The translations under genes were made by a program, and so were the position numbers. A stretch of 64,000 nucleotides of DNA from Patescibacteria group bacterium. Lineage in GTDB: Bacteria; Patescibacteriota; Patescibacteriia; JAHIZJ01. The stretch spans positions 163,714-227,713 of the forward strand of contig JAQTMH010000002.1 of NCBI GenBank assembly GCA_028714495.1, in the 5' to 3' direction. The notes beneath the pieces are model-generated. The model ran no database searches, was not told where the DNA came from, and saw only the letters and a program-made list of their open reading frames with translations. Shown here one piece after another: positions 8,918 through 64,000 of the stretch. Each line of letters starts with the position of its first letter. Position 1 is the stretch's first letter.

Positions 8918-10090
8918 TTAGAGATATTTTCTTAGGATTTTTACTTGGTCTGTTTTTTCCCAGGTAAAACTTACCTCCTTGCGCCCAAAGTGCCCATAGG
9001 CAGCGGTGGCTTTATAGATTGGCCGCTTGAGTTTAAGATGACGAATAATCCCGCCTGGGGTCAGATCAAAATGCTTTCTGATTATCGCCACTAGCTTCTG
9101 GTCGCTGACCTGGCCAGTGCCAAAAGTATCCACCATGATGCTGATCGGCTCAGCGTAACCGATGACATAAGCGAATTGTATTTCGCATTTCTTGGCCAGG
9201 CCGGCGGCTACGATATTCTTAGCTACGTAACGGGCCATATACGAGGCTGAGCGATCGACTTTTGACGGATCTTTGCCGGAAAAACAGCCGCCGCCATGGC
9301 TCCCCTGCCCACCATAAGTGTCGACAATAATCTTCCGACCCGTCAATCCGGCATCAGCCGGCGGTCCGCCCTTGACAAATCGGCCGGTGGCATTGACGAA
9401 GACCTTTGTCTTCCGGTCAAAGTATTTGCCCGCGATGGGCTTGATAACTTTATTAAGCACGTCGCGTTTAACTCGCTCCTCGGCCACCGCTTCATCGTGC
9501 TGACAAGCGACAACCACTGTATCCAATCGTTTGGGCCGTCCATTAACGTATTCTATGGCTACTTCGGTTTTGCCGTCAGGCCTCAAATAGGGCAATTTAT
9601 TGCTCTTCCTGACTTGAGCCAGCCGGCGGGCCATTTTATGGGCCATGATTATCGGCAAGGGCATCAACTCCGGGGTTTCGTCTGAGGCATAACCAAACAT
9701 TAATCCCTGGTCGCCGGCTCCTTGTTTTTTAAATTTCCCTTTGCCCGCGTCCACACCCTGGGCAATATCCGGGCTTTGCTCATCAATGGCCACGATTACT
9801 CCACAGTCTTCCCAATGAAAGCCATAATCATGATTTGAATAGCCGATATCGCGAATTGTTCGCCGGACTATCTTCTGTACGTCAACGTAACCCTTAGTCC
9901 GTATTTCGCCGGCCACTACCACCAGGCCGGTAGTAACTAAAACCTCACAACCACAATGGCTTTCAGGATCCTGTCGGATCAATTCATCCAAAATGGCGTC
10001 CGAAATTTGATCGCAGATTTTATCCGGGTGGCCTTCGGTAACCGACTCGGAGGTAAAAATAAAACGTTCTGATTTTTTGAGTTTGGGCAT
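8918..10090 (-). CDS. metK: S-adenosylmethionine synthetase
   Basis: Matches the MetK signatures [36 protein letters not shown] and [19 protein letters not shown]. Confidence 0.9.
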
Positions 10091-10108
10091 GTTCTTTTTT
10101 ACTTATTA

Positions 10109-11134
10109 TTATAATTTAATATCTTCTAAACCGATTACCTTGCTCCCCTTCATGTCATCAATAGTGTACTTCAGGCCTTCTTCGATCGGCACGACCGGAA
10201 ACCAGCCAATTTTATTTTTGGCCAGAGAAATGTCGGGGATGCCTCGATAATGAGCGTAGGGAGAGTCTTTCTCAAAAGAAATTTCTGATTTTGAACCAGC
10301 CAGCTCCCGTATTTTCTCGGCAATTTCCTTCAACGTGATTGTCGTGGTGCTGCCGATATTTATCGGCCCGGCGATTTCCGATTTCATGATTTTTAAGATA
10401 GCTTCAATCACGTCGGTAATGTAGCAAATGGCTGTCTTGGCCGTTGGCTCGGCGTAGACCACCATGGGCTGGTTCATGATCGCTTTTGAGATTAAGCGGG
10501 GAATCATCCGGTTGTCCTTTAAATTCATCCGGGGACCGTAGGTCTGGAAAAGACGCATGATCCGGGCATCAATATTATATTCTTCACGATAGATTTTTAC
10601 CAAAGTTTCAGCATAACGCTTGCCCTCGTCATAACAGCCTCGGTTGCCTAAATGGTCAACAAAACCCCAATAATCTTCCTTGTAAACCTTACCCTCCTTA
10701 TCAATCGGCCAGCCGTAAACAGCCGAGCAGGAAGAAAAAAGAAATCGGGCGTGGTATTTTACCGCTAGATCAAGCGCGTTTTTAGTGCCGAGGCCGTTAG
10801 TCAAGACCGTGGCGATTTGGTGCTCGAGTTTTTCATAGTTCGAAGTGGGGCAAGCCAGGTGATAAATCTCCTGGATGCCATGAAAAGGGATTTTGAATTT
10901 TTTCAAGCCCGGGTAGGCTTCTAGGTCAGGCGGCTCAATCAAATCATGTTTGACAAACTCAAAATTCGGCAAGTGAAGCAGGTGCTGGATGTTTTCAATA
11001 TTGCCGGAAATGAAGTTGTCTAGACAGATGATATTTCCCTCTTTGATCAGGGCGTCGCACAAGTGGCTGCCGATGAAACCGGCGCCGCCTGTTACTAAGA
11101 TGTTTTTCTTTTGGATTAATTCGGATACGGCCAT
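10109..11134 (-). CDS. UDP-glucuronate decarboxylase (UDP-xylose synthase)-like NAD-dependent epimerase/dehydratase
   Basis: ILVTGGAGFIGSHLCDAL Rossmann motif plus a YDEGKRYAE catalytic YxxxK resembling UXS. It lies downstream of ugd. Confidence 0.7.
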   Translation of the reverse strand: MAVSELIQKKNILVTGGAGFIGSHLCDALIKEGNIICLDNFISGNIENIQHLLHLPNFEFVKHDLIEPPDLEAYPGLKKFKIPFHGIQEIYHLACPTSNYEKLEHQIATVLTNGLGTKNALDLAVKYHARFLFSSCSAVYGWPIDKEGKVYKEDYWGFVDHLGNRGCYDEGKRYAETLVKIYREEYNIDARIMRLFQTYGPRMNLKDNRMIPRLISKAIMNQPMVVYAEPTAKTAICYITDVIEAILKIMKSEIAGPINIGSTTTITLKEIAEKIRELAGSKSEISFEKDSPYAHYRGIPDISLAKNKIGWFPVVPIEEGLKYTIDDMKGSKVIGLEDIKL

Positions 11135-11135
11135 A

Positions 11136-11858
11136 TTATTTAAATAAATGTTGAAATCTTATTTTAACCAGGGCGAGAAACATGTTTAAGCTGGTTCTCA
11201 TTAGTTTCGTGGTTGAACCCAGCATTTCTGAGCTTGATTTGTCGACCCAGACGCTCGGTACTTCGGTGATATGAAAGCCGGCCCTCTTCGCCAGCCAAAG
11301 CAATTCAACGTCAAAAGCCATGTTTTTTTCCTTCAAATTCGGCAGTATCTTCTGCACCACCTCGCGACGGAAAAGCTTGGCTCCGCACTGCGTATCCCGA
11401 ACCGGCAGCCAGAATAAAAGCTTTGTGACCAGATGAAAACCCTGGCTGGTTAATTTTCTCAAGGGCGACTTCCGGCCGATAATTTGCGAGCCCTTTTTCC
11501 AACGCGAGGCGATTGCACCGTCGTATTTTTTCTGTAAGATGGCCTCAACTAATTTTCGATATTCCTCCGGGCTGGTTGAGCCATCAGCGTCCAGAAAGCC
11601 AACGAGCTCCCCTTCGGCCTTTTGAAAACCGTAGTGGACCGCCAAACCTTTGCCGCCGGTCTTTAAATCAAAATACCGAATGGCTGGACCCAATTCTTTG
11701 ATAGCCCGCTCAACCACTTCGCGGCTATCGTCTCTACAGCCATTTAAAACCACGATTATTTCTGTTTGGCCGGGATAAAAATCCTTCACGTACCGGTCCA
11801 AGGTCTCACGGATTCTTTTGGCTTCGTTATAGGCTGGAATGACTATGGAAATGAGCAT
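11136..11858 (-). CDS. Glycosyltransferase family 2 (dolichyl/polyprenyl-phosphate sugar transferase-like)
   Basis: ISIVIPAYNEAKRI...LDADGST pattern of Dpm1/GtrB-like GT2 enzymes. Confidence 0.7.
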   Translation of the reverse strand: MLISIVIPAYNEAKRIRETLDRYVKDFYPGQTEIIVVLNGCRDDSREVVERAIKELGPAIRYFDLKTGGKGLAVHYGFQKAEGELVGFLDADGSTSPEEYRKLVEAILQKKYDGAIASRWKKGSQIIGRKSPLRKLTSQGFHLVTKLLFWLPVRDTQCGAKLFRREVVQKILPNLKEKNMAFDVELLWLAKRAGFHITEVPSVWVDKSSSEMLGSTTKLMRTSLNMFLALVKIRFQHLFK

Positions 11859-11859
11859 A

Positions 11860-13095
11860 TTATTTTTGGGTTCCCAGAGTTACCTCGATGGTTTTAACTT
11901 CAGTGTCTCGCAATACTTCAAGTTTAACGCTATCGCCCGCCGAATAACTTAGAATTAGGTTGGTTAAATTGTTCGTTTCATCGACAGATAGGCTGCCGAC
12001 TTTCAAGATTATATCCCCTTTGGCCAAACCGGCCTTTTCAGCCGGACTATTGGTCAAAACCGCCGGCTGGTTTGCTTCCAAATCCCCATAAATCAACGCG
12101 CCGTTCTTTTTATTCTGGGAAAATAGACTGGCCACGTTTTCCGCCCGACCCAGATCAAGATAATAAACGCCTAATAACGGGCGAACTACTTGGTTATTTT
12201 TTAGCAGGCTGTTCAAGCCGCTTTGGATCTGATCGGCTGGAACCATCTGATTAGTCGGCCAATCGGCTGAAGCCACTATCCCGACAATTTCACTTGAGGC
12301 GTTAATAACAACGCTTCCTTGGTACTGGGCCGCTACTGGGTCTTTAATAAGCCAATGTTCATTGGAGGTGTCGCTCGACTGATAATATTCATCAGCCCGG
12401 GATGCGTCCGGCTGGTATTTTTGGATAAGCTTGGTCGGCCAAAGCATTGGTAAGGCTCCGCTGTTTTTTTTGATTAAGAAAATTTCTTGTCCAGCGGCAA
12501 TCTTATCTCTGGTCGCGAATTTATTTACCGTGAAATTTTTACCATTAATTTTTAAAAAGTACAAAGACGTGGCTGGATCAGCCATTATTTTTTCCACGGC
12601 GTATACCTCGCCACTTGAAGTAACGGCCACGTAAACTTGCTGTAAATCAGGCGTCGCCCACTTCGGTACCACCACCCAACCATCGCTAGTCACTAACAGG
12701 CCGGTTGATAACTGTTCCCAGGGATGATAAAGCGAAGCCCGCGGATCGGCCGCTGACTGATTTGTCTGTTTTTTAAATATTCCGACCAAGCCAGCTTGAG
12801 ACTGTTCAGCCAAATCCGATAATTTATTCGAGTCAATTTCGGTTTGGCGGTTTGTCTGGACAGTGGCAGTCCCCTGACTGGTATTTTGATCCGTAAAGAA
12901 GTTGTAGAAAAAATAACCACCAAAAAAACCCGAAAAAACACCAACAATAACGGCTAAAAGAATAATAAAAAGTCGTCCACTCTTAGGTGGCGGCCGATGT
13001 ATCTCGGTCAAGCTTTTATCATGATAGAGTTTGTCCAGTTCTTTGAGGCGTTTATTTTTTGGGGAGGTGGGTGTCGGTTCGATTTCCATAAACAT
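11860..13095 (-). CDS. Membrane-anchored trypsin-like (HtrA-family) domain plus a C-terminal PDZ domain; the catalytic His appears to be missing
   Basis: One TM helix is followed by a region alignable to HtrA protease-domain blocks (DGWVVV, YAVEKIMADPATSLYFLKI, DPVAAQYQGSVVINASSEIVGIV). The C-terminal PDZ reads GALIYG...AGLAKGDIILKVGS. There is no His where HtrA has NHV, and GNSGG is replaced by YQGSV. Confidence 0.55.
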   Translation of the reverse strand: MFMEIEPTPTSPKNKRLKELDKLYHDKSLTEIHRPPPKSGRLFIILLAVIVGVFSGFFGGYFFYNFFTDQNTSQGTATVQTNRQTEIDSNKLSDLAEQSQAGLVGIFKKQTNQSAADPRASLYHPWEQLSTGLLVTSDGWVVVPKWATPDLQQVYVAVTSSGEVYAVEKIMADPATSLYFLKINGKNFTVNKFATRDKIAAGQEIFLIKKNSGALPMLWPTKLIQKYQPDASRADEYYQSSDTSNEHWLIKDPVAAQYQGSVVINASSEIVGIVASADWPTNQMVPADQIQSGLNSLLKNNQVVRPLLGVYYLDLGRAENVASLFSQNKKNGALIYGDLEANQPAVLTNSPAEKAGLAKGDIILKVGSLSVDETNNLTNLILSYSAGDSVKLEVLRDTEVKTIEVTLGTQK

Positions 13096-49243: not shown

Positions 49244-51094
49244 TTATTGTCGGTTAGTTTTAATCTTATTGTTACTTGGTTTAGTCTCTTTTTTATTGAG
49301 AAAAAAGAAGATTAATACCAGCAAAACCACGCTCAAAAAAGAGCCGGAGAGCATAACGATTTCAAAAGCCCGCGTTTTATCAGCCGACTTCTCCGGAGCA
49401 TTAACAGCCGTATCGTCATCCGCCTGTCGGAAGATCAGATCATCCTTCATCTCCGTGGTTTGCATCACTCGATAGAATTTGGTCAAATAATATTTTTTCT
49501 GGCTGGCCTGAACCCAAGGCTGGGTTTGATCATCAAAAGCCAGCTCTTCGACCTGCTTCTTTGTCAGCCAACCGGCATAAGGCGTGCTATACCCCGGCGC
49601 TGACTGTTTATGACCGCTAATTACGTAGAGAGTGAGTGTTACTGTCGCTGGCGGTTCATAGGTCGTCCAGCCTGACGCCGTACGATTATAGACCAGCAGC
49701 TCGATTTGACCGTCGCGCCTGGTCAGGTTCAAGTTATTTTCAAATGACGCTGACCAAAGGAGCGAGTCCAGCTGTTCATTCGAACCGAGCGAATAGCTGG
49801 CGGCGATTTGTTCAGTGGTTAGGGCTGAATTGAATATTGCTAATTCGTCCATGCCACCGCCTAAAGGATATTCGTCTAGATATATTCCCCGCTGGCCAAA
49901 GTAAATCGTGCCTGAAGTTGTGGGATTAATATCGCCGGCCACAAGTACTTCCTTAATGTTGTTTCTGTCGCGAGTGGCTAAAGCCTGTCCGTCAAAGTAA
50001 ATTTGCGGCTTCTGATTTTCAGCCCAGGTTACGGCTACTTGATGCCAACCAGTCGAAGTCGTGTCCGAATCAATAAAGGATTGCCAGATAGTAGCTTGAC
50101 CTGATTCAGAATAGTCAGCAAATTCGATTTTTCTTCCTTGAGAACGAAATTCCATAATATCGTTTGACTCTGAGCTTACGACATTCACAAATTCCTGATA
50201 AGTGGCTCCATCGGAGAAATCAAGTCCTTTAACCCAAAGCGCCATGGTCCCGGCTGAAGCGTTAAAATTGCCCATAATCGGCACAATCAATTGATCCCCT
50301 TTACCAAGGCGTATCGCTTGGCCGGATTTACCGGTGAGATATCTGGGGTTCGTAGTGTTTGTAGCTATCTGAGCGTCTTCTGTAATCCCCGACTCTGGAG
50401 TTGGCTCATCTCTATATATTATCTGGCTGTCATCGTTGTAATAATTCATCGCTCCCGAAATCTTCAAGGGGTAGATAATCTTGTCGGATTTAAATACGAT
50501 TTTCACTGGGGTGGCATGGCCGGTTTTCAACTCCTGGCCTACTTGGTCGCTTAATTCCTCGGCGTTGATTTTCATGGCCACGAAATACCAGCCTTCATTA
50601 ACGTAATCCTCAAGAATTCTCTCCCCCAGCGAAGGATAATAGTAATCATTGTCATCAAACCACTCGAGCAATTCATCCGTGTCCTCGGCCTGAAGAGTGG
50701 TAACTTCGTAATAATCGACTTTTTTTGTTTCAATCACATTGACCCCGCTTTCCTTGGTATCTTCGATAGAACCAATTGGGTAATCCAGCCTCTGGCTGTA
50801 GTTCGCTATCTGGGTCAATTCTTCGAGCGAGGTGAATAATTCATCAGATGATTTTGAAATCTCCGGCTTATTTGGAGTCGGCACGAGCCAGGCGAAATCA
50901 CGGGCATCGCCCTGAAAAGCCGTGGACAGAACTAAGGTCTCGGTTCCGTTCTCGTAAAAAATTGCCGCCTTTTGCGCGGTTTCGTACATGTAATAATCGG
51001 GCGGCGGCACTATCATGCCATCAGCCAGGGCGACCGAGGGCAGCATTAAAGAAGCCGTTAAGATAAAAAATGCTGTTTTGATCAATTTTTTCAT
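49244..51094 (-). CDS. Secreted protein with a LamG-like (concanavalin-A-like lectin) domain and a C-terminal TM anchor
   Basis: Signal peptide. Central region GTMALWVKGLDFSDG...WHQVAVTW...IYFDGQ...MDELAIFNSALTTEQI is typical of Laminin_G_3. A hydrophobic helix and a basic tail end the protein. Confidence 0.5.
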   Translation of the reverse strand: MKKLIKTAFFILTASLMLPSVALADGMIVPPPDYYMYETAQKAAIFYENGTETLVLSTAFQGDARDFAWLVPTPNKPEISKSSDELFTSLEELTQIANYSQRLDYPIGSIEDTKESGVNVIETKKVDYYEVTTLQAEDTDELLEWFDDNDYYYPSLGERILEDYVNEGWYFVAMKINAEELSDQVGQELKTGHATPVKIVFKSDKIIYPLKISGAMNYYNDDSQIIYRDEPTPESGITEDAQIATNTTNPRYLTGKSGQAIRLGKGDQLIVPIMGNFNASAGTMALWVKGLDFSDGATYQEFVNVVSSESNDIMEFRSQGRKIEFADYSESGQATIWQSFIDSDTTSTGWHQVAVTWAENQKPQIYFDGQALATRDRNNIKEVLVAGDINPTTSGTIYFGQRGIYLDEYPLGGGMDELAIFNSALTTEQIAASYSLGSNEQLDSLLWSASFENNLNLTRRDGQIELLVYNRTASGWTTYEPPATVTLTLYVISGHKQSAPGYSTPYAGWLTKKQVEELAFDDQTQPWVQASQKKYYLTKFYRVMQTTEMKDDLIFRQADDDTAVNAPEKSADKTRAFEIVMLSGSFLSVVLLVLIFFFLNKKETKPSNNKIKTNRQ

Positions 51095-57890: not shown

Positions 57891-58466
57891 CTACGCTTCC
57901 GACGACGATTTTTTCGTCGGGTTTATCATAATCCAGTGTTTGTATTCTGAAGAATTTTGGTGAGGGAGATGTAATTTTCTTTTTTCGCCAAAATTTCTAT
58001 CTGAAATATAATAAACGTTTTTCGCGCTAAGACGAATATCCTTATCAAACCAATTTTCAAATGCCCTAAACCCTTTCGTCTGCGTCAGGCGCCAAAGCAG
58101 ACTCAATTGAGTGTCGGTAGAAGTATTATTATTTGTAAAACGGACAACCGCTATATGGTTCGAGGGTATTAAAATATCTTTGCCCGTATCGGCTGTCACA
58201 AAAATTGTTTTCCAGTTTTTGTGCGAAATAACATCGGATATTTGAGTATCAGTAGCTCCTGCGAATGCAACCAATTCAACTTTGGCAATCGTTAGTCCAA
58301 AGAAAACATCCGTTATGCCCTGAGCAGCGGCTAAACCAAAAACGTTTTCATCAAACACAACTACTGTTCGGCCGTCCTCTGGAATTGCAGAGTTAAAATC
58401 CGAATTGGTAGTTGAGGGATTAAAAGAAGATAAAAATAAATTGTCATTCTGAAATTCGTCAATCAT
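57891..58466 (-). CDS. Hypothetical protein, downstream partner of the proteasome-like gene
   Basis: 191-aa ORF whose ATG overlaps the stop of the upstream gene (ATGA). Predicted alpha/beta fold (VVVFDENVFGLAAAQGITDVFFGLTIAKVELVAFAGA). No family recognised. Confidence 0.45.
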   Translation of the reverse strand: MIDEFQNDNLFLSSFNPSTTNSDFNSAIPEDGRTVVVFDENVFGLAAAQGITDVFFGLTIAKVELVAFAGATDTQISDVISHKNWKTIFVTADTGKDILIPSNHIAVVRFTNNNTSTDTQLSLLWRLTQTKGFRAFENWFDKDIRLSAKNVYYISDRNFGEKRKLHLPHQNSSEYKHWIMINPTKKSSSEA

Positions 58467-59197
58467 GCGGTAAGCGTTTTATTTTTTATAAAACTCGCCT
58501 TGTCGGGAGTAATTACAAGTACATCAACGGGGCCACCGACATTTTTGGGGCGAGCTTGAAAACGAATTGTGTCAATCGTTGCCTTGATTGCAAATTCTGA
58601 AAAATCTATTGCGTCTTGCAGTGGCATGGCATCCCAAATGATAGGAGCGGGTTGGCGTAATACTTTTTGTGTACCAGTCTGATCGGCAACAACAACTGGA
58701 GTAATAAGTCCGGAAATTACATCAGCTTGGCCAGACCATGTTGCCCCATATGCAAGCGAGTTGTCTGGTTTTAGGTTTCTGCGAGAAACTTCGTTGCGAC
58801 CAATATGACAATAAAAAACATACGGAACGCTCACTTTGCCGTCTTTCTTATACCCGCAAACATGGAAACCACAATCTGTTTTTCCAAATTCTTTTGCAAA
58901 AAAATCGACGAGCTTGCGGGCGATTAATTCTACATCATCAGTATCTTTCAAAACTTCTTCGCTGAAACGCTTTATATGACTTGCCATTGGTACGCCGCCG
59001 AGCAAATCCTGTCCAAAATTCGAAATACCCACCTTCTGTTTTTCAAGAAGGAAGGTTTTTGTAACGGCATCAGAGTTTACTGTTTCCACATTAAACTCTT
59101 TGCCATCGGGACTTTTGCCGGAAATGGTAACAGACTGGCGACTATCAGACGCCATTGCGATACCTTCTGGAACATATGTTGCGACAACTAAACTCAT
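58463..59197 (-). CDS. 20S-proteasome-beta / HslV-like Ntn-hydrolase homolog with Ser at position 1
   Basis: Alignable to archaeal proteasome beta. The N-terminus M-S-LVVATYVPEGIAMASDSRQS matches T1..GxxxAxDxR (Asp17/Arg19 equivalents present). ...YGATWSGQADVISGL matches the YASTGSGS Ser129/Gly130 block. No propeptide. Confidence 0.5.
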   Translation of the reverse strand: MSLVVATYVPEGIAMASDSRQSVTISGKSPDGKEFNVETVNSDAVTKTFLLEKQKVGISNFGQDLLGGVPMASHIKRFSEEVLKDTDDVELIARKLVDFFAKEFGKTDCGFHVCGYKKDGKVSVPYVFYCHIGRNEVSRRNLKPDNSLAYGATWSGQADVISGLITPVVVADQTGTQKVLRQPAPIIWDAMPLQDAIDFSEFAIKATIDTIRFQARPKNVGGPVDVLVITPDKASFIKNKTLTA

Positions 59198-59330: not shown

Positions 59331-59351
59331 TGGTGCGCCGTGGAGGATTCG
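59331..59351. repeat. 21-bp direct repeat of the tRNA-Lys 3' end, an att-like footprint
   Basis: tggtgcgccgtggaggattcg is identical to 59489-59509, the 3' end of tRNA-Lys including CCA. The sequence diverges after the T-arm. Confidence 0.6.
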
Positions 59352-59488
59352 TGTCCTGGGCAGCGGCGACCTGCCACTGGCAGCTCGCCGATCGCTCGTC
59401 TGTCGCTTCGCTCGGTCTCGCTCCTGCCCTTCGAATCCCCTTCATGGTACAAGGCTGATTTCTGTATTTAAACTGAGCGTGGATTCTA

Positions 59489-59565
59489 TGGTGCGCCGTG
59501 GAGGATTCGAACCTCCGACCGTCTGCTTAAAAGGCAGCTGCTCTACCAGGCTGAGCTAACGGCGC
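59489..59565 (-). tRNA. tRNA-Lys (anticodon UUU)
   Basis: The reverse complement reads GCGCCGTTAGCTCAGCCTGGTAGAGCAGCTGCCTTTTAAGCAGACGGTCGGAGGTTCGAATCCTCCACGGCGCACCA. It forms a cloverleaf with anticodon loop CTTTTAA and an encoded CCA. Confidence 0.8.
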
Positions 59566-59635
59566 GAGTTTTTACTTAATGAAGATTAGCAGATATTTAT
59601 ATTTTTTGCAAGGGTCGAACTGAAGCATAAAAAAA

Positions 59636-59660
59636 GCCCGGATACTAGGTGGTATCCAGG
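59636..59660 (-). terminator. Rho-independent terminator (minus strand) after the 59673 gene
   Basis: On the minus strand: cctggatac-cacc-tagtatccgggc followed by ttttttt. The aaaaaagcccggata motif is shared with the 61560 terminator. Confidence 0.4.
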
Positions 59661-59672
59661 CGTGGTACTTGC

Positions 59673-60476
59673 TCAAGTCAATGAGCCGCTGAAAAACACA
59701 GGCTCCTCAGTCGGAGTGAATGTTGACCGACTGGTCAGCAACGGACCGCTAATTCGGAATGTTGGAAATCTGTCCGTCTGACCCCTGGTCGGATCTTGGT
59801 CGTCGTTGAGTTCATGGAGCACGCCCGAACAAACGATGAATTCCGGTCCGCCACAGAGCCGACTCCATTCTGGATGCGTGAGCAGGAGAATTGCCACTTC
59901 AAAGGGCGTGAGGACAAACCGGCTTTGCATGCGGTTTGTTTCACTGATCGCGCGAGTGAAATCACGGTCTGGCACGGTCAGACAAGTGACAGACACGACC
60001 ATGAAGTCAAATTCATCGAATGTAGCGATGTGCTGAATGTGTTCATTCGCGATCGAGAAGGTAGGTCCTAGGACAGATTGAAGATCGAAGCCCGAGGTGA
60101 TGGACGTCACGAATGGCTGGCGCGACATCAGCAGAATCAGGGCGTGATAAAGCGCCAATCGGTAATGGCTGCTTAGTCGGTTTGGATTTGGGATGACTGC
60201 CAGACTTCTCTTTGGCCCGCGTGTGAGCAATGCTTCGGCTTGCGGACGCACTGGCTCTGCGTTGAATCTCTGGAACAGTGGCCACTCGAGCAATAAATCT
60301 AGCTGCTCCTCCCAGGGCCGAAGCTCACAGGGCTTCTCCAGTCTGGTCGAGCCGATAATCTTCTGAAGTAGGCAGCTTACCTCATGCGGATCTCGCTGGC
60401 CATCGACTACCAGTTTGCTAACCGTTGCCCATTGCCGGAACAATCGGTCTCCGGCCCGGACCGCGACACTACTCAT
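59673..60476 (-). CDS. Hypothetical protein, GC-rich (about 55%), probably horizontally acquired
   Basis: 267-aa Arg-rich ORF. The codon usage is atypical for the window. It is flanked by tRNA-Lys and a tandem repeat region. No family recognised. Confidence 0.4.
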   Translation of the reverse strand: MSSVAVRAGDRLFRQWATVSKLVVDGQRDPHEVSCLLQKIIGSTRLEKPCELRPWEEQLDLLLEWPLFQRFNAEPVRPQAEALLTRGPKRSLAVIPNPNRLSSHYRLALYHALILLMSRQPFVTSITSGFDLQSVLGPTFSIANEHIQHIATFDEFDFMVVSVTCLTVPDRDFTRAISETNRMQSRFVLTPFEVAILLLTHPEWSRLCGGPEFIVCSGVLHELNDDQDPTRGQTDRFPTFRISGPLLTSRSTFTPTEEPVFFSGSLT

Positions 60477-60619: not shown

Positions 60620-60925
60620 GGGTGAAGGGGCGTCTCCTTGGTTGCCTTATGAATCCCTGACCCAGGATTCCGATCCAGGGGAAAGGTCTCCTACTCTATG
60701 GAGATGCTTCGTTTCACTCAGCAATTCAGGACAAGAATCCCTGAACGTAGTGAAGGGTCTCCTACTCCAGGGAGATGCTTCGTTTCACTCAGCAATACAG
60801 AACATGAATCCCTGACCCCGAGTCATATCGAGGGGGAAGGGTCTCACAATGATAAAAGTCGTTCTCGGTTAGGAGATCCTTCGGCCAGGCCTCAGGAATA
60901 CAGACCAAGTATCCCTGACCCCGGA
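60620..60925. repeat. Degenerate tandem repeat: 4 units with a 56-83 bp period
   Basis: Each unit starts g(g)gaagggtctc and ends gaatccctgac(cc). Units 2 and 3 are about 90% identical and include the hairpin tctcc-tactcYRg-ggaga. There are no unique-spacer/short-repeat CRISPR features. Confidence 0.5.
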
Positions 60926-61007
60926 CTCCCTGCGCCTCTCAGACCTAAACCCTTCAAAGACCTTTTTTATATTTGACTATCTTTTTCATCTGGAGCAAAA
61001 TATAAGC

Positions 61008-61505
61008 ATGGAAGAAATCGCGAAAAAAGACGCCCTGGCCAAAGCCAAAGAATGGCGGGCCGCCGGTAAAATCTGGCATTTTCATCTGCTGACGCCTGAT
61101 TGCGTTTTCAATGAAAGCAATGATAGACACGCCGTAATCTTGGAAAATACCGAGGACGAACAAATCTTCGTGGTTTATACTGACAAGCGTTCCCTGACCA
61201 TGGGCAAAATCCTGCTAAAGCTCCTCCATGGCAGCAAGGTCCTGGATCGGCCAAAGCGAGCTGCCCCGCCGAAAAACCCGGAGCTCCAGAAATTGCTGAA
61301 CCGGGCCAAGGAAATGAATCGCCTGGGTATTCCCTGGCACCACCACAATCTTTTTCCCGATTGCCAATTTAACGACCACGTGGGGCAGTGGAATATCGTG
61401 ATGGAGGACAAGGATAAAGGCAACCTGCTCGAAGCCGCCTACAACACCGAACCGAAAGAAGACATCAAAGAAATCGAGCGCCTTTTCTACGCACAGAAGG
61501 AATAA
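61008..61505 (+). CDS. Small protein with an internal tandem duplication (two WHxH-L-x-PDC-xFN domains); function unknown
   Basis: KIWHFHLLTPDCVFNESNDRHAVILENTEDEQIFVV aligns to IPWHHHNLFPDCQFNDHVGQWNIVMEDKDKGNLLEA. The only plus-strand gene in the terminal island. Confidence 0.5.
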   Translation: MEEIAKKDALAKAKEWRAAGKIWHFHLLTPDCVFNESNDRHAVILENTEDEQIFVVYTDKRSLTMGKILLKLLHGSKVLDRPKRAAPPKNPELQKLLNRAKEMNRLGIPWHHHNLFPDCQFNDHVGQWNIVMEDKDKGNLLEAAYNTEPKEDIKEIERLFYAQKE

Positions 61506-61559
61506 ATATTTTATTAAGCAAAATCTTATTTTAGGGATTTTGTTTTTTGAAATAAAAAA

Positions 61560-61597
61560 GCCCGGATATTCATCTAGAATACCGGGCAAAGGAACGA
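61560..61597. terminator. Bidirectional intrinsic terminator between convergent genes
   Basis: gcccggatattcatctagaataccgggc, flanked by an A-run on one side and a T-run on the other. Confidence 0.45.
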
Positions 61598-61613: not shown

Positions 61614-63971
61614 TCAATTGCCTTCAGGCTGACTGCCCTGCCTGGAGACAATCTCCAGCCGTTTGTTCTCGTATCCCCTTCGCTTGGCTTTCACCTCCCA
61701 GGTGAATCCCGAGCTACTGCCTGAGGGATCGATGATATCGAAACCGGTCTTTCCGGGCTGGTAGTACCAGTTTCCATGGGGCCCAAGGAAAGACGCGTTG
61801 ACGATGAGCGGATATTCATCCGAGATCGTCACGAGTTCAAGGAACAGAGGGTCAAGCTCGACATGCGCAATTCCGTTCACTAACTGGCCTCTACCCAAGT
61901 CAGAAAGGTGGCCCTCTGTCGATGTAGAAACATAGCTCTCCCTCATTTCACCGCCATCTTCCTGAACCATAGAAATACCACCAGTTGCCTCAATTCTGCC
62001 GATGCAGTAAAGGCCCAGGGCACTACTGTTTGGCATCTTGATGTAGACGCCTGTGCCGTTCACGGAGTTATTCTCCGCCAGAATAGTCCTCGCAGAACCA
62101 GTCGTGTGTTTTGAGATTGCCTTCACGGCAGCCGCGTCGGCATTGCTGGATTCAATGTCTCCTTCAAGTCCATAGACGATTCCTGATCCATGGACAGCTT
62201 CGCCAAACACGCCAGCCGGCACACTGGAATTTGAGCCTGATTGCTTGTAACCATGCGTTCGCCCAAGAACTCCGAAAGTAGCGCCCCCAACAGTAGCCCC
62301 GGTATCAAGTGCCATTCCGTAAACTCCAACAGCCGCCGCGCCTCCTGGATTGGGTTTTCCTTTTGCACGCGTTATCCCTTTCACACCATATGTCGCATTC
62401 TCGCCCTCGTACTTGTTATCCGCTTCGATAGCGGATTGATCCTGGCTTCCCACTGAAGCAGTGCCGGCTCTCACGAGGATACCATGACCTTGACCTTCGT
62501 TAACCACCCGTAGAACAGGGACACCCAATGACGTGTTGTCTCTGACATGAAGTTTGTTTTCCGGATCAGCAGTCCCCATTCCAACTCGTCCGTCTGTCAT
62601 CGCGGTTAGAATCCGCGTGCCGCCGGAAGCACCCTCAGTATCGATGAAAAACTGGTCCACGGCGCCCCGCTGGTCGACCAACATCCTCCAGAGATTCTTG
62701 TTTGGGTTCAGCCGCACCTCGGTACCGTCGTAGTACCCGTTGAAGTTAATTGCCTGGAACCCGCTGTTTTCACCGGGGAGCGGTTGAATGATGATGTTGG
62801 AATTCGCAGTACCATCCGTAACGCGCAATCCCCGATGAGTCAACTGTTGGCATTGTACCGTGAAGCGGCTTTGAGGCGTCGAAGTGCCGACTCCGACATT
62901 GCCAGAGTTCGTACTGTAAATGTCATTGCCAGAGCCAGCCCAGTAGGATGTCCCCGCGGCCGTAGTCTGCACGGTGCCGTCAGGGAACTTGAAACCTCCG
63001 GAGGCCGAGTGGATTCGACCTACCACCTGCAGTTTCTCCGTTGGATCAGTAGTGCCAACACCGAGATTCCCGCCCACGAAACCATCCTGATATGATCCAA
63101 ATCCATCGGCATCAGCCCAGAAATAGGTGAGGGTGGCTCCATTGTTCTGAACGCCGAAGTATCCATTCGCACCAGGGATACGAGCAGCCAGATTCGTGTT
63201 GTCGCTATACCACCCGGACAATACATTTCCCATTCCTTGAATGCCATTAATGCCGAAGATCTCTCCGCCCTGAACACGCACATCCCCATTGACATCAAGG
63301 GCATGGGCTGGGTTGGCCGTCCCAATCCCGACTTTGCCATCCTTACGAACAAGAAAACGTGAGTTGGTTTCATGGGACAGATGGGCCAGATATCCTTCAG
63401 TTGAGCCCGAACTTACGATGAACAAACCCTCACCATTCTTGTAGGCAAGTCGCACATCTGACGAGTTGTCTCCCAGACTGTTCGTAAAGCGCGCTGCCCA
63501 GTCATCACTATGGCCGTCAACATGAAGACGAGTGATAGGTAAAGTTGTCCCAATCCCCACATTACCATTGCCCAAAACGCAAAATTCGGTACCCACCGCG
63601 TTGCTCACCTGGAACAACCGTTCGGTCAATGGCACATTCCCTAAGCCGTTAACCAGCATCAGTTCATGCGAGCCGGTTAGATAGAACGGCCACATGGCTG
63701 AACCGCCATCGAAGTGAAACTTGTATCCAGGGTTGCTCGTACCGAATCCGATATAGCCCGGGTTCGTGTTGTAGATGTTGCCGTTCGACTCGGCCCAGTG
63801 GCTGTCACCACCTCCGCCCGTTCCGGAGGAATCAGCATAGGCCGCGTGGGTCGCGTAATCAGCAGTTTCCGCGTGACTAGCTGCCCGGGCTGAATCAGCC
63901 AGGGTAGCCTCTTGGGCGGTCTGCGAAGATACTGCCTGATTGGCCATCTGTGTCAGAAACGCGTATGGCAC
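61614..63971 (-). CDS. Large Gly-rich repeat protein resembling a tail fiber or beta-helical adhesin (5 or more 'GxGTxxP' repeats), GC-rich
   Basis: Repeats NVGIGTTLPITRLHV, KVGIGTANPAHALDV, NLGVGTTDPTEKLQV, NVGVGTSTPQSRFTV and RVGMGTADPENKLHV resemble tail-fiber-domain proteins. About 55% GC. Has its own terminator. Confidence 0.5.
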   Translation of the reverse strand: MPYAFLTQMANQAVSSQTAQEATLADSARAASHAETADYATHAAYADSSGTGGGGDSHWAESNGNIYNTNPGYIGFGTSNPGYKFHFDGGSAMWPFYLTGSHELMLVNGLGNVPLTERLFQVSNAVGTEFCVLGNGNVGIGTTLPITRLHVDGHSDDWAARFTNSLGDNSSDVRLAYKNGEGLFIVSSGSTEGYLAHLSHETNSRFLVRKDGKVGIGTANPAHALDVNGDVRVQGGEIFGINGIQGMGNVLSGWYSDNTNLAARIPGANGYFGVQNNGATLTYFWADADGFGSYQDGFVGGNLGVGTTDPTEKLQVVGRIHSASGGFKFPDGTVQTTAAGTSYWAGSGNDIYSTNSGNVGVGTSTPQSRFTVQCQQLTHRGLRVTDGTANSNIIIQPLPGENSGFQAINFNGYYDGTEVRLNPNKNLWRMLVDQRGAVDQFFIDTEGASGGTRILTAMTDGRVGMGTADPENKLHVRDNTSLGVPVLRVVNEGQGHGILVRAGTASVGSQDQSAIEADNKYEGENATYGVKGITRAKGKPNPGGAAAVGVYGMALDTGATVGGATFGVLGRTHGYKQSGSNSSVPAGVFGEAVHGSGIVYGLEGDIESSNADAAAVKAISKHTTGSARTILAENNSVNGTGVYIKMPNSSALGLYCIGRIEATGGISMVQEDGGEMRESYVSTSTEGHLSDLGRGQLVNGIAHVELDPLFLELVTISDEYPLIVNASFLGPHGNWYYQPGKTGFDIIDPSGSSSGFTWEVKAKRRGYENKRLEIVSRQGSQPEGN

Positions 63972-64000
63972 CGAGGCAAGCTCTGTGCGGGGAGAAAGCG

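Follow-up and report, generated by a model that had tools for sequence, protein, structure and literature searches.

Little is understood of how the ultrasmall cells of Patescibacteria (CPR) locate and grip their hosts; among the papers found in the literature, the experimental work deals with type IV pili. The window analysed here, a stretch of 64,000 nucleotides of a Patescibacteria contig, ends in a gene for a large Gly-rich protein with a recurring motif, and the locus raises the question of what such a protein is and why this cell encodes it. We consider it probable that the gene encodes a secreted, MAT-like (mosaic adhesive trimeric) cell-surface fibre of the non-S74 subgroup, assembled from phage tail-fibre modules, for which host attachment or recognition would be the likeliest use. 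As kin to the prey-recognition fibres of Bdellovibrio, encoded on a strain-variable islet, it offers a concrete and testable candidate for host attachment and host range.

A predicted secreted protein that extends beyond the window

A sequence-only reading of the window had described a 785-aa protein encoded at 61614–63971. The minus-strand open reading frame, which ends at a stop codon at 61614–61616, belongs to a real gene whose 5′ part lies beyond the window edge, but beyond the GTG at 63971 the frame runs on without a stop to base 63998, so that both that length and the GTG start are artefacts of the edge. The product is represented by a database protein from a Patescibacteria MAG, P0001, which is 100% identical and 899 aa long; its first 114 residues, Sec signal peptide included, are absent from the 785-aa ORF, so that window-ORF residue numbers equal P0001 numbers (used below) minus 114. 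From the open frame and the P0001 match, the visible 3′ part of the gene spans 61614–64000 (minus strand; P0001 residues ~105–899 plus the stop), the true start and signal peptide lie ~313 nt past the window end, and the full gene corresponds to positions 10001–12700 of locus L001.

P0001 begins with MKSFRWILGVLAVLAIVSVSQA, followed by DVPTK. Read directly from the sequence, this N-terminus has the n-h-c layout of a 22-residue signal sequence ending SQA, with D next in line. We infer from it that P0001 is a Sec-secreted protein, the 899-aa precursor of which would be exported by Sec and relieved of its 22-residue signal peptide by cleavage. The domains then follow in the order of a beta-rich N-domain, a helical neck, a shaft, a Gly-rich GVxG region and a C-terminal beta-sandwich.

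The N-domain, ~90–100 aa long, is modelled by AlphaFold2 (AF2) at residues ~25–112 with pLDDT 89–96; of the 120 best homologues, 33 share this layout. From AF2 and the profile, its end is visible in the window (residues 106–122, ...LSPRTELASVPYAF...; 63948–63998, minus strand). The domain profile matches residues 31–93 of an S74-type fibre of Bdellovibrio sp. NC01 (E 9e-7), a match that spans ~60 of 100 profile positions and concerns an NC01 protein and none of the MATs characterised in HD100. An Ala/Ser/Thr-rich neck (residues 115–160; 63834–63971, minus strand) comes after it, predicted in the AF2 model to hold helices at 115–129 and 138–156, both at low pLDDT, that may wind into a coiled coil once the fibre is assembled. 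This composition had been noticed before and attributed to the N-terminus; the richness in Ala, Ser and Thr holds, and its place is an internal helical neck (P0001 115–156).

Capping loops and a probable three-stranded shaft

At least five copies of the recurring motif had been claimed, and the repeat proves stronger than that: the pattern G-x-[VIL]-G-[IVFM]-G-T-x-x-P-x-x-x-[LF]-x-[VF] occurs six times, with starts at residues 186, 250, 326, 415, 471 and 575 (spacing 56–104 aa), and not one of 5000 residue shuffles held six copies, the maximum being two. On the minus strand the copies are encoded at 63711–63758 (GYIGFGTSNPGYKFHF, residues 186–201), 63519–63566 (GNVGIGTTLPITRLHV, 250–265), 63291–63338 (GKVGIGTANPAHALDV, 326–341), 63024–63071 (GNLGVGTTDPTEKLQV, 415–430), 62856–62903 (GNVGVGTSTPQSRFTV, 471–486) and 62544–62591 (GRVGMGTADPENKLHV, 575–590). 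The consensus for the capping loops of MAT fibres is V-G-G/N-pi-x-x-P-x-x-x-L (PMC10769870). The repeat fits this motif if one extra hydrophobic position is allowed, and the aligned segments of Bd2133 depart from the printed consensus in the same way.

The sole sequence match found by phmmer in the PDB is to chain residues 188–277 of 8OND_A (Bd2133; E 7e-13). It covers residues 398–488 (62850–63122, minus strand), within which the fourth copy pairs with GNVGIGATAPTAKLEV of Bd2133 and a conserved joint, GGFKFPDGTVQTTAA, is encoded at 62955–62999 (minus strand). Foldseek against the PDB returned only Bd1334 (8OML) and Bd2133 (8OND) at E <= 1e-3, with 8ONC further down. TM-scores were low because the shaft is poorly modelled as a monomer (pLDDT 30–70; AlphaFold2, monomer only), and such low confidence is compatible with, and no proof of, an intertwined oligomer. 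Homology to the solved trimers of Bd2133, Bd1334 and Bd3182 argues for a trimeric shaft, in which three chains would intertwine into a beta-helix and the six GxVGIGTxxPxxxLxV capping loops would mark the boundaries of its segments, and the protein is probably a three-stranded surface fibre.

MAT fibres fall into S74 and non-S74 (NS74) subgroups (PMC10769870), and the nearest solved relatives are NS74 MATs of Bdellovibrio bacteriovorus (Bd2133, 8OND; Bd1334, 8OML; Caulton et al., 2024, PMC10769870). Like these, the protein has a signal peptide, a beta-rich N-domain that may be equivalent to theirs, a long shaft with repeated capping loops, the joint ...GNVGIGxTxPTxKLxVxGxIHSxSGGxKFPDGxVQTTAA, a C-terminal tip that is modular and swappable, and a chromosomal, non-phage site, and like these it lacks an S74 domain. 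Unlike them, it belongs to a member of the Patescibacteria (CPR) and not to a predatory diderm, its N-domain is ~100 aa against ~130 aa and only partly alignable, and its gene has a small FlgD_ig/T9SS-CTD-like partner and a place in a variable islet linked to a tRNA.

The capping-loop motif and shaft repeats are also common to S74-type fibres, which comprise bacterial 'tail fiber domain-containing' proteins as well as phage fibres (K1F endosialidase, T5 pb1, Bd3182). Those fibres, however, have a Peptidase_S74 intramolecular chaperone, and many of the 120 homologues carry the corresponding PF13884 (e.g., P0087, P0024), whereas PF13884, with its SDxxxK autoproteolytic motif, for which a search had been advised, was not found in the Patescibacteria fibre. 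No Pfam family, Peptidase_S74 included, matched the fibre (window part E <= 1; P0001 E <= 0.01) in a search in which P0087 and P0024, as positive controls, reached 73 and 37.6 bits, respectively. The fibre must thus fold without the C-terminal S74 chaperone. An NCBIfam search of the fibre was also without a match, so that with both collections empty it has no curated family name. Neither the Por_Secre_tail sorting domain (TIGR04183/PF18962), of which the upstream 182-aa neighbour has one, nor any Pfam match to YadA-like trimeric autotransporter adhesins was found on P0001; PF05658 occurs in a few distant homologues only.

A tip held in common with phage tail proteins

Proximally, the C-terminal module consists of a Gly-rich region with recurring GVxG/GVYG strands in the consensus of alignment A1 (residues 601–790; 61944–62513, minus strand), modelled as short beta strands (pLDDT 45–67, monomer) with a weak Foldseek likeness to tailspike beta-helices. 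The AF2 model (pLDDT 89–98) and homologues delimit a terminal beta-sandwich, the tip domain, at residues ~800–885 (61659–61916, minus strand). An exhaustive search found 1805 representative tip relatives, and of the 150 listed nearly all have the match at the C-terminus; a search for homologues of the last 300 aa gave 8 proteins and missed P0001 itself, and is not a measure of rarity, which the exhaustive search is.

The module forms the extreme C-terminus of a 1624-aa tail-region protein of prophage Lj965 and ends a protein of phage SDFMU_Pfc encoded after the tape-measure gene. In BFVD there were 32 matches at E <= 1e-3, with phage tail proteins first (best tail-protein E 1.5e-8). What the siphophage tail and host-specificity proteins (Lj965 Ljo_0324, Lactobacillus; SDFMU_Pfc WNO29720, Bacillus; minor tail proteins of Arthrobacter phages) have in common with the fibre is a C-terminal module of ~100–200 aa with DPLFLExV and F-x-W-E-[IV]-K-A-K-R-x-G-Y-E-N-x-R-L, a likeness that includes a fold match in BFVD and is confined to the fibre tip; the siphophage proteins are virion components, encoded between tape-measure and lysis genes. 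Additionally, the tip resembles the small beta-sandwich of R-type pyocin and myophage tail-fibre foot domains (PA0620, 6CL6/6CT8; AP22 gp53, 4MTM) at the fold level only (probability 0.95–1.0 over 85–111 columns; E 0.05–0.1, identity 11–12%). The descriptions of MAT tips set it apart from the sandwiches of Bd2133 and Bd1334 and from TNF-like and C-type lectin tips (PMC10769870); unlike all of these, it matches phage tail-protein C-termini. From the place of the same module in phage tail proteins we propose that the tip is the ligand-binding end, and that the Gly-rich region and terminal beta-sandwich together would form the distal tip, with a ligand on other cells that is probably a glycan or protein of their surface.

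PHROG tail-fibre families also match the fibre (phrog_9942, 1.3e-13), and tblastn gave weak matches to tail fibres of cyanophages and a Thermus phage. Together with the tip and the Bdellovibrio MAT relatives, these matches bear out the earlier description of the protein as tail-fibre-like or adhesin-like.

A two-gene cassette in a strain-variable islet

Upstream of the fibre lies a partner gene, which ends 16 nt before it and encodes a 182-aa FlgD_ig/T9SS-CTD-like protein with a TIGR04183 type A sorting domain (35.8 bits vs a cutoff of 23). The pair is preceded by a promoter-like site and followed by a terminator, and AGGAGG stands before the fibre ATG. The partner is kept in locus L005 (45% identity, same position), where the pair is present twice, and in other phyla the cassette and related fibres have ordinary chromosomal surroundings. 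FlgD_ig domains also occur as plain Ig-like modules. Type IX secretion is not expected in a Patescibacteria cell, which has no outer membrane, so the cassette, given the T9SS domain of the partner, may work differently here than in its likely donors.

The closest fibre relatives, 43–46% identical, are found in non-CPR bacteria and, like the tandem cassettes, on non-CPR contigs where FlgD_ig/Por_Secre_tail proteins abound. P0001 alone is labelled Patescibacteria in the set of 120 best homologues; its 90%-identity cluster has one member on one contig; and a single-protein scan of GTDB genomes gave two partial relatives only, both from Verrucomicrobiota. SecY from the same contig is 70–79% identical to Patescibacteria SecY, set against 43%, on a non-CPR contig, for the best fibre relative. 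Most likely, the two-gene cassette was horizontally acquired from a non-CPR bacterium.

Base composition gives no support to a foreign origin. The gene had been put at about 10% above the window average in GC; the excess is real, at 6.8 points (0.539 vs 0.471), and it is driven by amino acids and carries no foreign-DNA signature, because GC3 is normal (0.560, z +0.36 vs 54 window genes), GC2 is high (z +2.6) and the protein is rich in Gly (14%) and in G+A+P+R (31%). With GC3 normal, we rejected foreign origin as an argument from GC.

The surroundings of the cassette are not those of a phage. Upstream past the partner gene come RNase T, DnaB, YbaB, RecR, L21 and the SecY ribosomal operon; downstream, past four family-less genes and a tRNA-Lys, come a P-type ATPase, aminoacyl-tRNA synthetases and ScpA/B. 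There are no phage genes, integrase or structural module within ~10 kb upstream of the fibre and no phage genes in the ~16 kb checked downstream (ten genes over ~12 kb beyond the islet). A check for further phage structural genes beyond the window end, which the sequence-only reading had advised, thus found flanks that are housekeeping or family-less. The islet neighbours have no PHROG match apart from one marginal one. In sister genomes the position is different: RNase T, tRNA-Lys and the P-type ATPase are adjacent in L012, just two small genes occupy the islet position in L013, and in L011, where the DNA is 97% identical, identity stops right after RNase T. The fibre cassette sits in a small strain-variable islet at the tRNA-Lys and not in a prophage. 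Of the mobile context that had been suspected, the phage part falls away, and an islet absent from sister genomes stands.

The islet landmark, tRNA-Lys(UUU), lies at 59489–59565 (minus strand) and is inverted relative to the sister genomes. Prophage integration at this tRNA was considered and rejected: a 21-nt att-like repeat is present, but there are no integrase or phage genes, and the fibre is not bracketed. A convergent 165-aa gene (61008–61505, plus strand), for which Pfam, NCBIfam and PHROG gave no match, is 57% identical to a gene in L013 that also encodes 165 aa and lies between RNase T and tRNA-Lys; judged by this counterpart, it is a lineage-conserved resident of the intergenic hotspot that the islet occupies. 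The islet also holds a 267-aa gene without family matches (59673–60476, minus strand), and tblastn searches with the 267-aa, 244-aa and 191-aa neighbours were empty against all compared loci.

Function and alternative explanations

To a Patescibacteria cell that lives as an episymbiont, a MAT-like surface fibre would most likely serve for attachment to, or recognition of, its host. The N-domain (~23–112) would hold the base at the cell surface, possibly via the co-transcribed 182-aa FlgD_ig-like protein, and the shaft would present the tip. A tentative extension, which we regard as possible and on balance doubtful, is that a CPR episymbiont captured a MAT-type cassette of unrelated bacteria with an outer membrane at a tRNA-Lys hotspot as a strain-specific host-recognition device and repurposed the FlgD_ig protein as an anchor or assembly partner on its own envelope, where type IX secretion is lacking; swapped cassettes or tips would then set host range.

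The leading idea of the sequence-only reading, in which a prophage or the remnant of a phage would be the source of a tail fibre or receptor-binding protein, has on its side the PHROG and phage tblastn matches, the tip common to phage tail proteins and the position of the gene next to a tRNA in a variable region. It is largely refuted by the flanks, where neither a phage gene nor an integrase occurs ~10 kb upstream or in the ten downstream genes (~12 kb), and by the other islet genes, of which all save the marginal case are without a PHROG match. The occurrence of the cassette and related fibres in ordinary chromosomes of other phyla also counts against it, as do the Sec signal peptide and the cellular-type N-domain; virion fibres and tail proteins are not known to carry Sec signal peptides. 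We judge this reading very improbable. A component of the envelope or matrix with a structural role (as in an S-layer or a sheath) and no specific binding would also be secreted, large, beta-rich and rich in Gly, Ala, Ser and Thr, but the gene is strain-variable, it is the one such gene in the sequence examined, its modular tip is common to phage host-recognition proteins, and its MAT relatives form discrete fibres (PMC10769870), so that we give this reading hardly any credence.

The Gly-rich beta region might instead act as a depolymerase, making the protein a secreted, tailspike-like glycan-degrading enzyme. Foldseek of the C-terminal model does reach phage tailspike depolymerases and a K1 capsule lyase (E 2e-3 to 4e-2), and BFVD yields matches to pectate-lyase-like proteins; these Foldseek alignments, however, have TM-scores of 0.1–0.28, rmsd of 13–20 Å and 7–11% identity and fall where the model has low confidence, Pfam gave neither a glycosidase nor a lyase family for the fibre, and the non-enzymatic MAT fibres are better-supported relatives, which makes an enzyme improbable. 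That the pair was recently transferred from T9SS bacteria with an outer membrane and is inert or orphaned here, not properly anchored on a Patescibacteria envelope, would suit the sorting domain of the partner, the non-CPR contigs on which the closest relatives and tandem pairs lie, the absence of the cassette from sister genomes at this locus and the single-member, single-contig cluster. Both frames are nevertheless intact (182 and 899 codons), with Shine-Dalgarno sites, the promoter-like site and the terminator in place, the host-like GC3 of the fibre argues against a very recent arrival, and the FlgD_ig domain may be a plain Ig-like module; we regard this reading as unlikely. If the cassette were inert here, the gene would be one more hypothetical 'tail fiber domain' protein of a very large environmental family. 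Read as a secreted MAT-like fibre, it shows phage receptor-binding modules recycled by cells across very distant phyla.

A terminator motif repeated in the islet

The fibre gene is followed by an intrinsic-terminator-like hairpin and T-run (61554–61587, minus strand) that holds one copy of the 15-mer AAAAAAGCCCGGATA. Exact copies occur in the window at positions 59630 and 61554 only, the second of them in the terminator (59629–59661) of the 267-aa gene, which had been singled out as another high-GC gene that may have arrived together with the fibre; with <=2 mismatches there are 4 matches vs 0.55 expected. The shared motif is confirmed, and joint arrival is possible only, the 267-aa gene being in the same islet. 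As proof of co-transfer the 15-mer was rejected as too short, since the stretch common to both terminators is ~17 nt only, half of it T-run, with a generic GC stem. Each copy forms the 3′ arm and T-run of a stable hairpin, one of −17.4 kcal/mol (z −4.8) and one of −17.5 kcal/mol (z −5.7).

A probably secreted fibre with a repeat shaft

The fibre gene occupies a long minus-strand frame whose stop codon lies at 61614-61616. Read directly, the DNA from the GTG at 63971 to the window edge keeps this frame open without an in-frame stop. The window therefore truncates the gene, and the 785-aa product of the sequence-only reading, counted from that GTG, is a partial ORF. An identical full-length database protein, P0001, has 899 aa, carries the annotation 'hypothetical protein PHI73_02750 [Patescibacteria group bacterium]' and lies on a 258.6-kb contig. 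The absent 5' end and 10 kb of upstream flank come from a second assembly of this locus (L001), and a typical Sec signal sequence, MKSFRWILGVLAVLAIVSVSQA|DV, stands at the head of the 114 residues outside the window.

In P0001 numbering, the signal peptide (1-22) is followed by a beta-rich domain (about 25-112, pLDDT 89-96), Ala/Ser/Thr-rich helices (115-156), a shaft with six loops (about 165-600), Gly-rich GVxG strands (601-790, pLDDT 45-67) and a beta-sandwich (about 800-885, pLDDT 89-98). The shaft reaches a pLDDT of only 30-70 as a monomer, as would be expected if its fold forms only as an intertwined oligomer. The repeat G-x-[VIL]-G-[IVFM]-G-T-x-x-P-x-x-x-[LF]-x-[VF] recurs six times, at residues 186, 250, 326, 415, 471 and 575 (spacing 56-104 aa), which bears out the earlier count of at least five copies; in shuffles of P0001 even a looser pattern gave a maximum of two copies, and six were reached in 0/5000.

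The protein is a probably secreted, S74-less fibre, built from phage tail-fibre modules, that resembles the mosaic adhesive trimeric (MAT) fibres of Bdellovibrio; the expectation of a tail-fibre or adhesin-like protein was thus sound. Pfam and NCBIfam searches gave no match to the fibre, and the Peptidase_S74 (S74) domain is absent from it in the same Pfam search that detected the domain in control homologues. Tail-fibre profiles do match, among the PHROGs families phrog_9942 (1.3e-13), phrog_18345 and phrog_3269. By sequence, Bd2133, a fibre of Bdellovibrio bacteriovorus (8OND, E 7e-13), is the sole relative with a solved structure; its alignment with P0001 covers ...GNLGVGTTDPTEKLQVVGRIHSASGGFKFPDGTVQTTAAG..., and a Foldseek search of the PDB with the full-length model reached E <= 1e-3 only for Bd1334 (8OML) and Bd2133 (8OND), Bd3182 ranking lower. 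MAT fibres, defined by Caulton et al. 2024 (PMC10769870), consist of a signal peptide and a conserved beta-rich N-domain, a trimeric intertwined beta-helix, and a C-terminal S74 chaperone/protease or, in NS74 members, a different tip. P0001 shares the lack of an S74 domain with the NS74 members, and a profile of its N-domain (33 homologues) matches the N-terminus of an S74-type fibre from Bdellovibrio sp. NC01 (residues 31-93, E 9e-7). The MAT capping-loop consensus V-G-G/N-pi-x-x-P-x-x-x-L bounds trimeric beta-helix segments (PMC10769870), and the P0001 motif is this loop with one extra hydrophobic position, just as in the aligned Bd2133 segments.

Searched against 1.84 billion cluster representatives, the C-terminal 300 aa have 1805 relatives, 378 of them at E <= 1e-10, and of the 150 listed nearly all match at their extreme C-terminus. 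In Lactobacillus prophage Lj965 the module ends a 1624-aa protein whose gene sits between the minor tail and lysis genes; in Bacillus phage SDFMU_Pfc it ends a 682-aa protein encoded directly after the tape-measure gene. By fold, BFVD gave 32 matches at E <= 1e-3 with phage tail and minor-tail proteins on top; PDB matches were weak (R2 pyocin fibre and AP22 gp53, E 0.05-0.1). This placement and the phage tail proteins with the same module suggest a distal end piece of the phage-receptor-binding type. On a Zixibacteria chromosome (L009, CP070813.1, 654544-668358), four fibre genes stand in a row, three with Peptidase_S74 matches, partly weak, and the fourth (P0093) S74-less with a tip module as in the window protein.

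Host, flanks and a secreted partner

The host is a genuine CPR bacterium, since its SecY is 70-79% identical to Patescibacteria/Kerfeldbacteria SecY and its S5 gene is followed directly by L15, without L30 between them, a reported CPR trait. The fibre belongs to an already described class but has an unusual host, a Patescibacteria cell; the literature searched held no report of such fibres in this group. Its role is most likely host-cell attachment.

Over the roughly 10 kb upstream and 16 kb downstream that were examined, the flanks are not phage. Upstream are a 182-aa gene, RNase T, DnaB, YbaB, RecR, L21 and a glycosyltransferase, then RuvX, Map, Adk, SecY and ribosomal proteins; downstream are a 165-aa gene, short repeats, a 267-aa gene, tRNA-Lys, two small genes and a P-type ATPase, beyond which lie two class II aminoacyl-tRNA synthetases, ScpA/B and a D-Ala-D-Ala carboxypeptidase. 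Of the earlier choice between phage tail fibre and adhesin, the phage tail-fibre modules stand, but the phage context and the phage structural genes sought beside the fibre do not. A 616-aa protein elsewhere in the window (49244-51094, minus strand), with DUF2330 and a concanavalin-like lectin domain (Laminin_G_3), is possibly another surface or binding protein.

A 16-nt gap separates the end of the 182-aa gene (L001 9436-9984, about 345-890 nt past the window's right end) from the fibre gene, and the pair lies between a promoter-like site upstream and a terminator downstream. The 182-aa product, secreted and co-transcribed with the fibre, carries a signal peptide of its own along with a FlgD_ig / type IX secretion type-A sorting domain (TIGR04183, 35.8 bits; cutoff 23). 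That domain is odd in a Patescibacteria genome, as type IX secretion is not expected in this lineage. The closest fibre homologue, P0002 (43% identity by BLASTP, 46% in alignment A2), is accompanied in the same place by a 182-aa gene with 45% identity. Its contig, L005, carries a second small-protein and fibre pair and encodes threonine synthase, Cys/Met enzymes and several FlgD_ig proteins, a content that, as we read the genes, is not typical of CPR; the partner is kept with the fibre in this unrelated bacterium. Further fibre relatives occur in Verrucomicrobiota, on the Zixibacteria chromosome with its four clustered genes and in other cellular contexts.

A variable islet at tRNA-Lys

About 6.7 kb separate the ATPase from RNase T in the window genome. 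In one sister genome (L012, SecY 78%) tRNA-Lys and the ATPase come straight after RNase T, and in another (L013, SecY 79%) only 171-aa and 165-aa genes intervene, the latter 57% identical to window 61008-61505; in L011, 97% DNA identity over 9 kb ends just after RNase T. Because of these differences, and because the fibre is the only member of its 90%-identity cluster, the cassette is strain-specific and probably horizontally acquired, though by no recognisable phage.

The fibre gene is indeed richer in GC than the window (53.9% vs 47.1%), but the excess lies in codon position 2 (z +2.6) and agrees with the protein's composition (14% Gly, 31% G+A+P+R), while GC3 is ordinary (0.560, z +0.36 vs 54 window genes), so GC lends no support to a foreign origin. 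The 15-mer AAAAAAGCCCGGATA, said to link the fibre to the gene at 59673, does occur exactly twice in the window (59630 and 61554), each time within a strong hairpin, whose 3' arm and T-run it forms, directly after a minus-strand gene, and among 13 fetched loci it is present only in L001, the same genome. As the two sequences read, however, their common stretch is ~17 nt, and it is therefore a weak argument for a common origin or joint arrival of the two genes.

Compared with L012 and L013, the tRNA-Lys segment (59484-59624) is inverted with respect to the ATPase and 165-aa genes that flank it; the ancestral orientation would put the islet on the tRNA-Lys 3' side, the usual side of island integration. 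The genes examined at 45.6-61.5 kb yielded no integrase. The Logan assembly of this locus also stops inside tRNA-Lys. A 21-nt exact direct repeat of the tRNA-Lys(UUU) 3' end (59331-59351 and 59489-59509) lies 158 nt away from the tRNA and has the look of an att-like scar. Between this repeat and the ATPase, overlapping 244-aa and 191-aa genes (57891-59197, minus strand) form a compositionally foreign two-gene cassette (GC3 0.34-0.35, z -2.5 to -2.7 vs window genes), absent from L012 and L013. They gave no Pfam or NCBIfam match and one marginal PHROG match; the N-terminus of the 244-aa protein looks Ntn-hydrolase-like. Short dispersed repeats lie at 60632-60930, between the 267-aa and 165-aa genes, with two 64-nt units, 91% identical, at 60681 and 60752 and three copies of a 33-nt unit. 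Copies in the 97%-identical L011 genome (5771-5819 and 6463-6506) flank an extra 115-aa gene, pointing to a small repeat that is mobile or recombinogenic.
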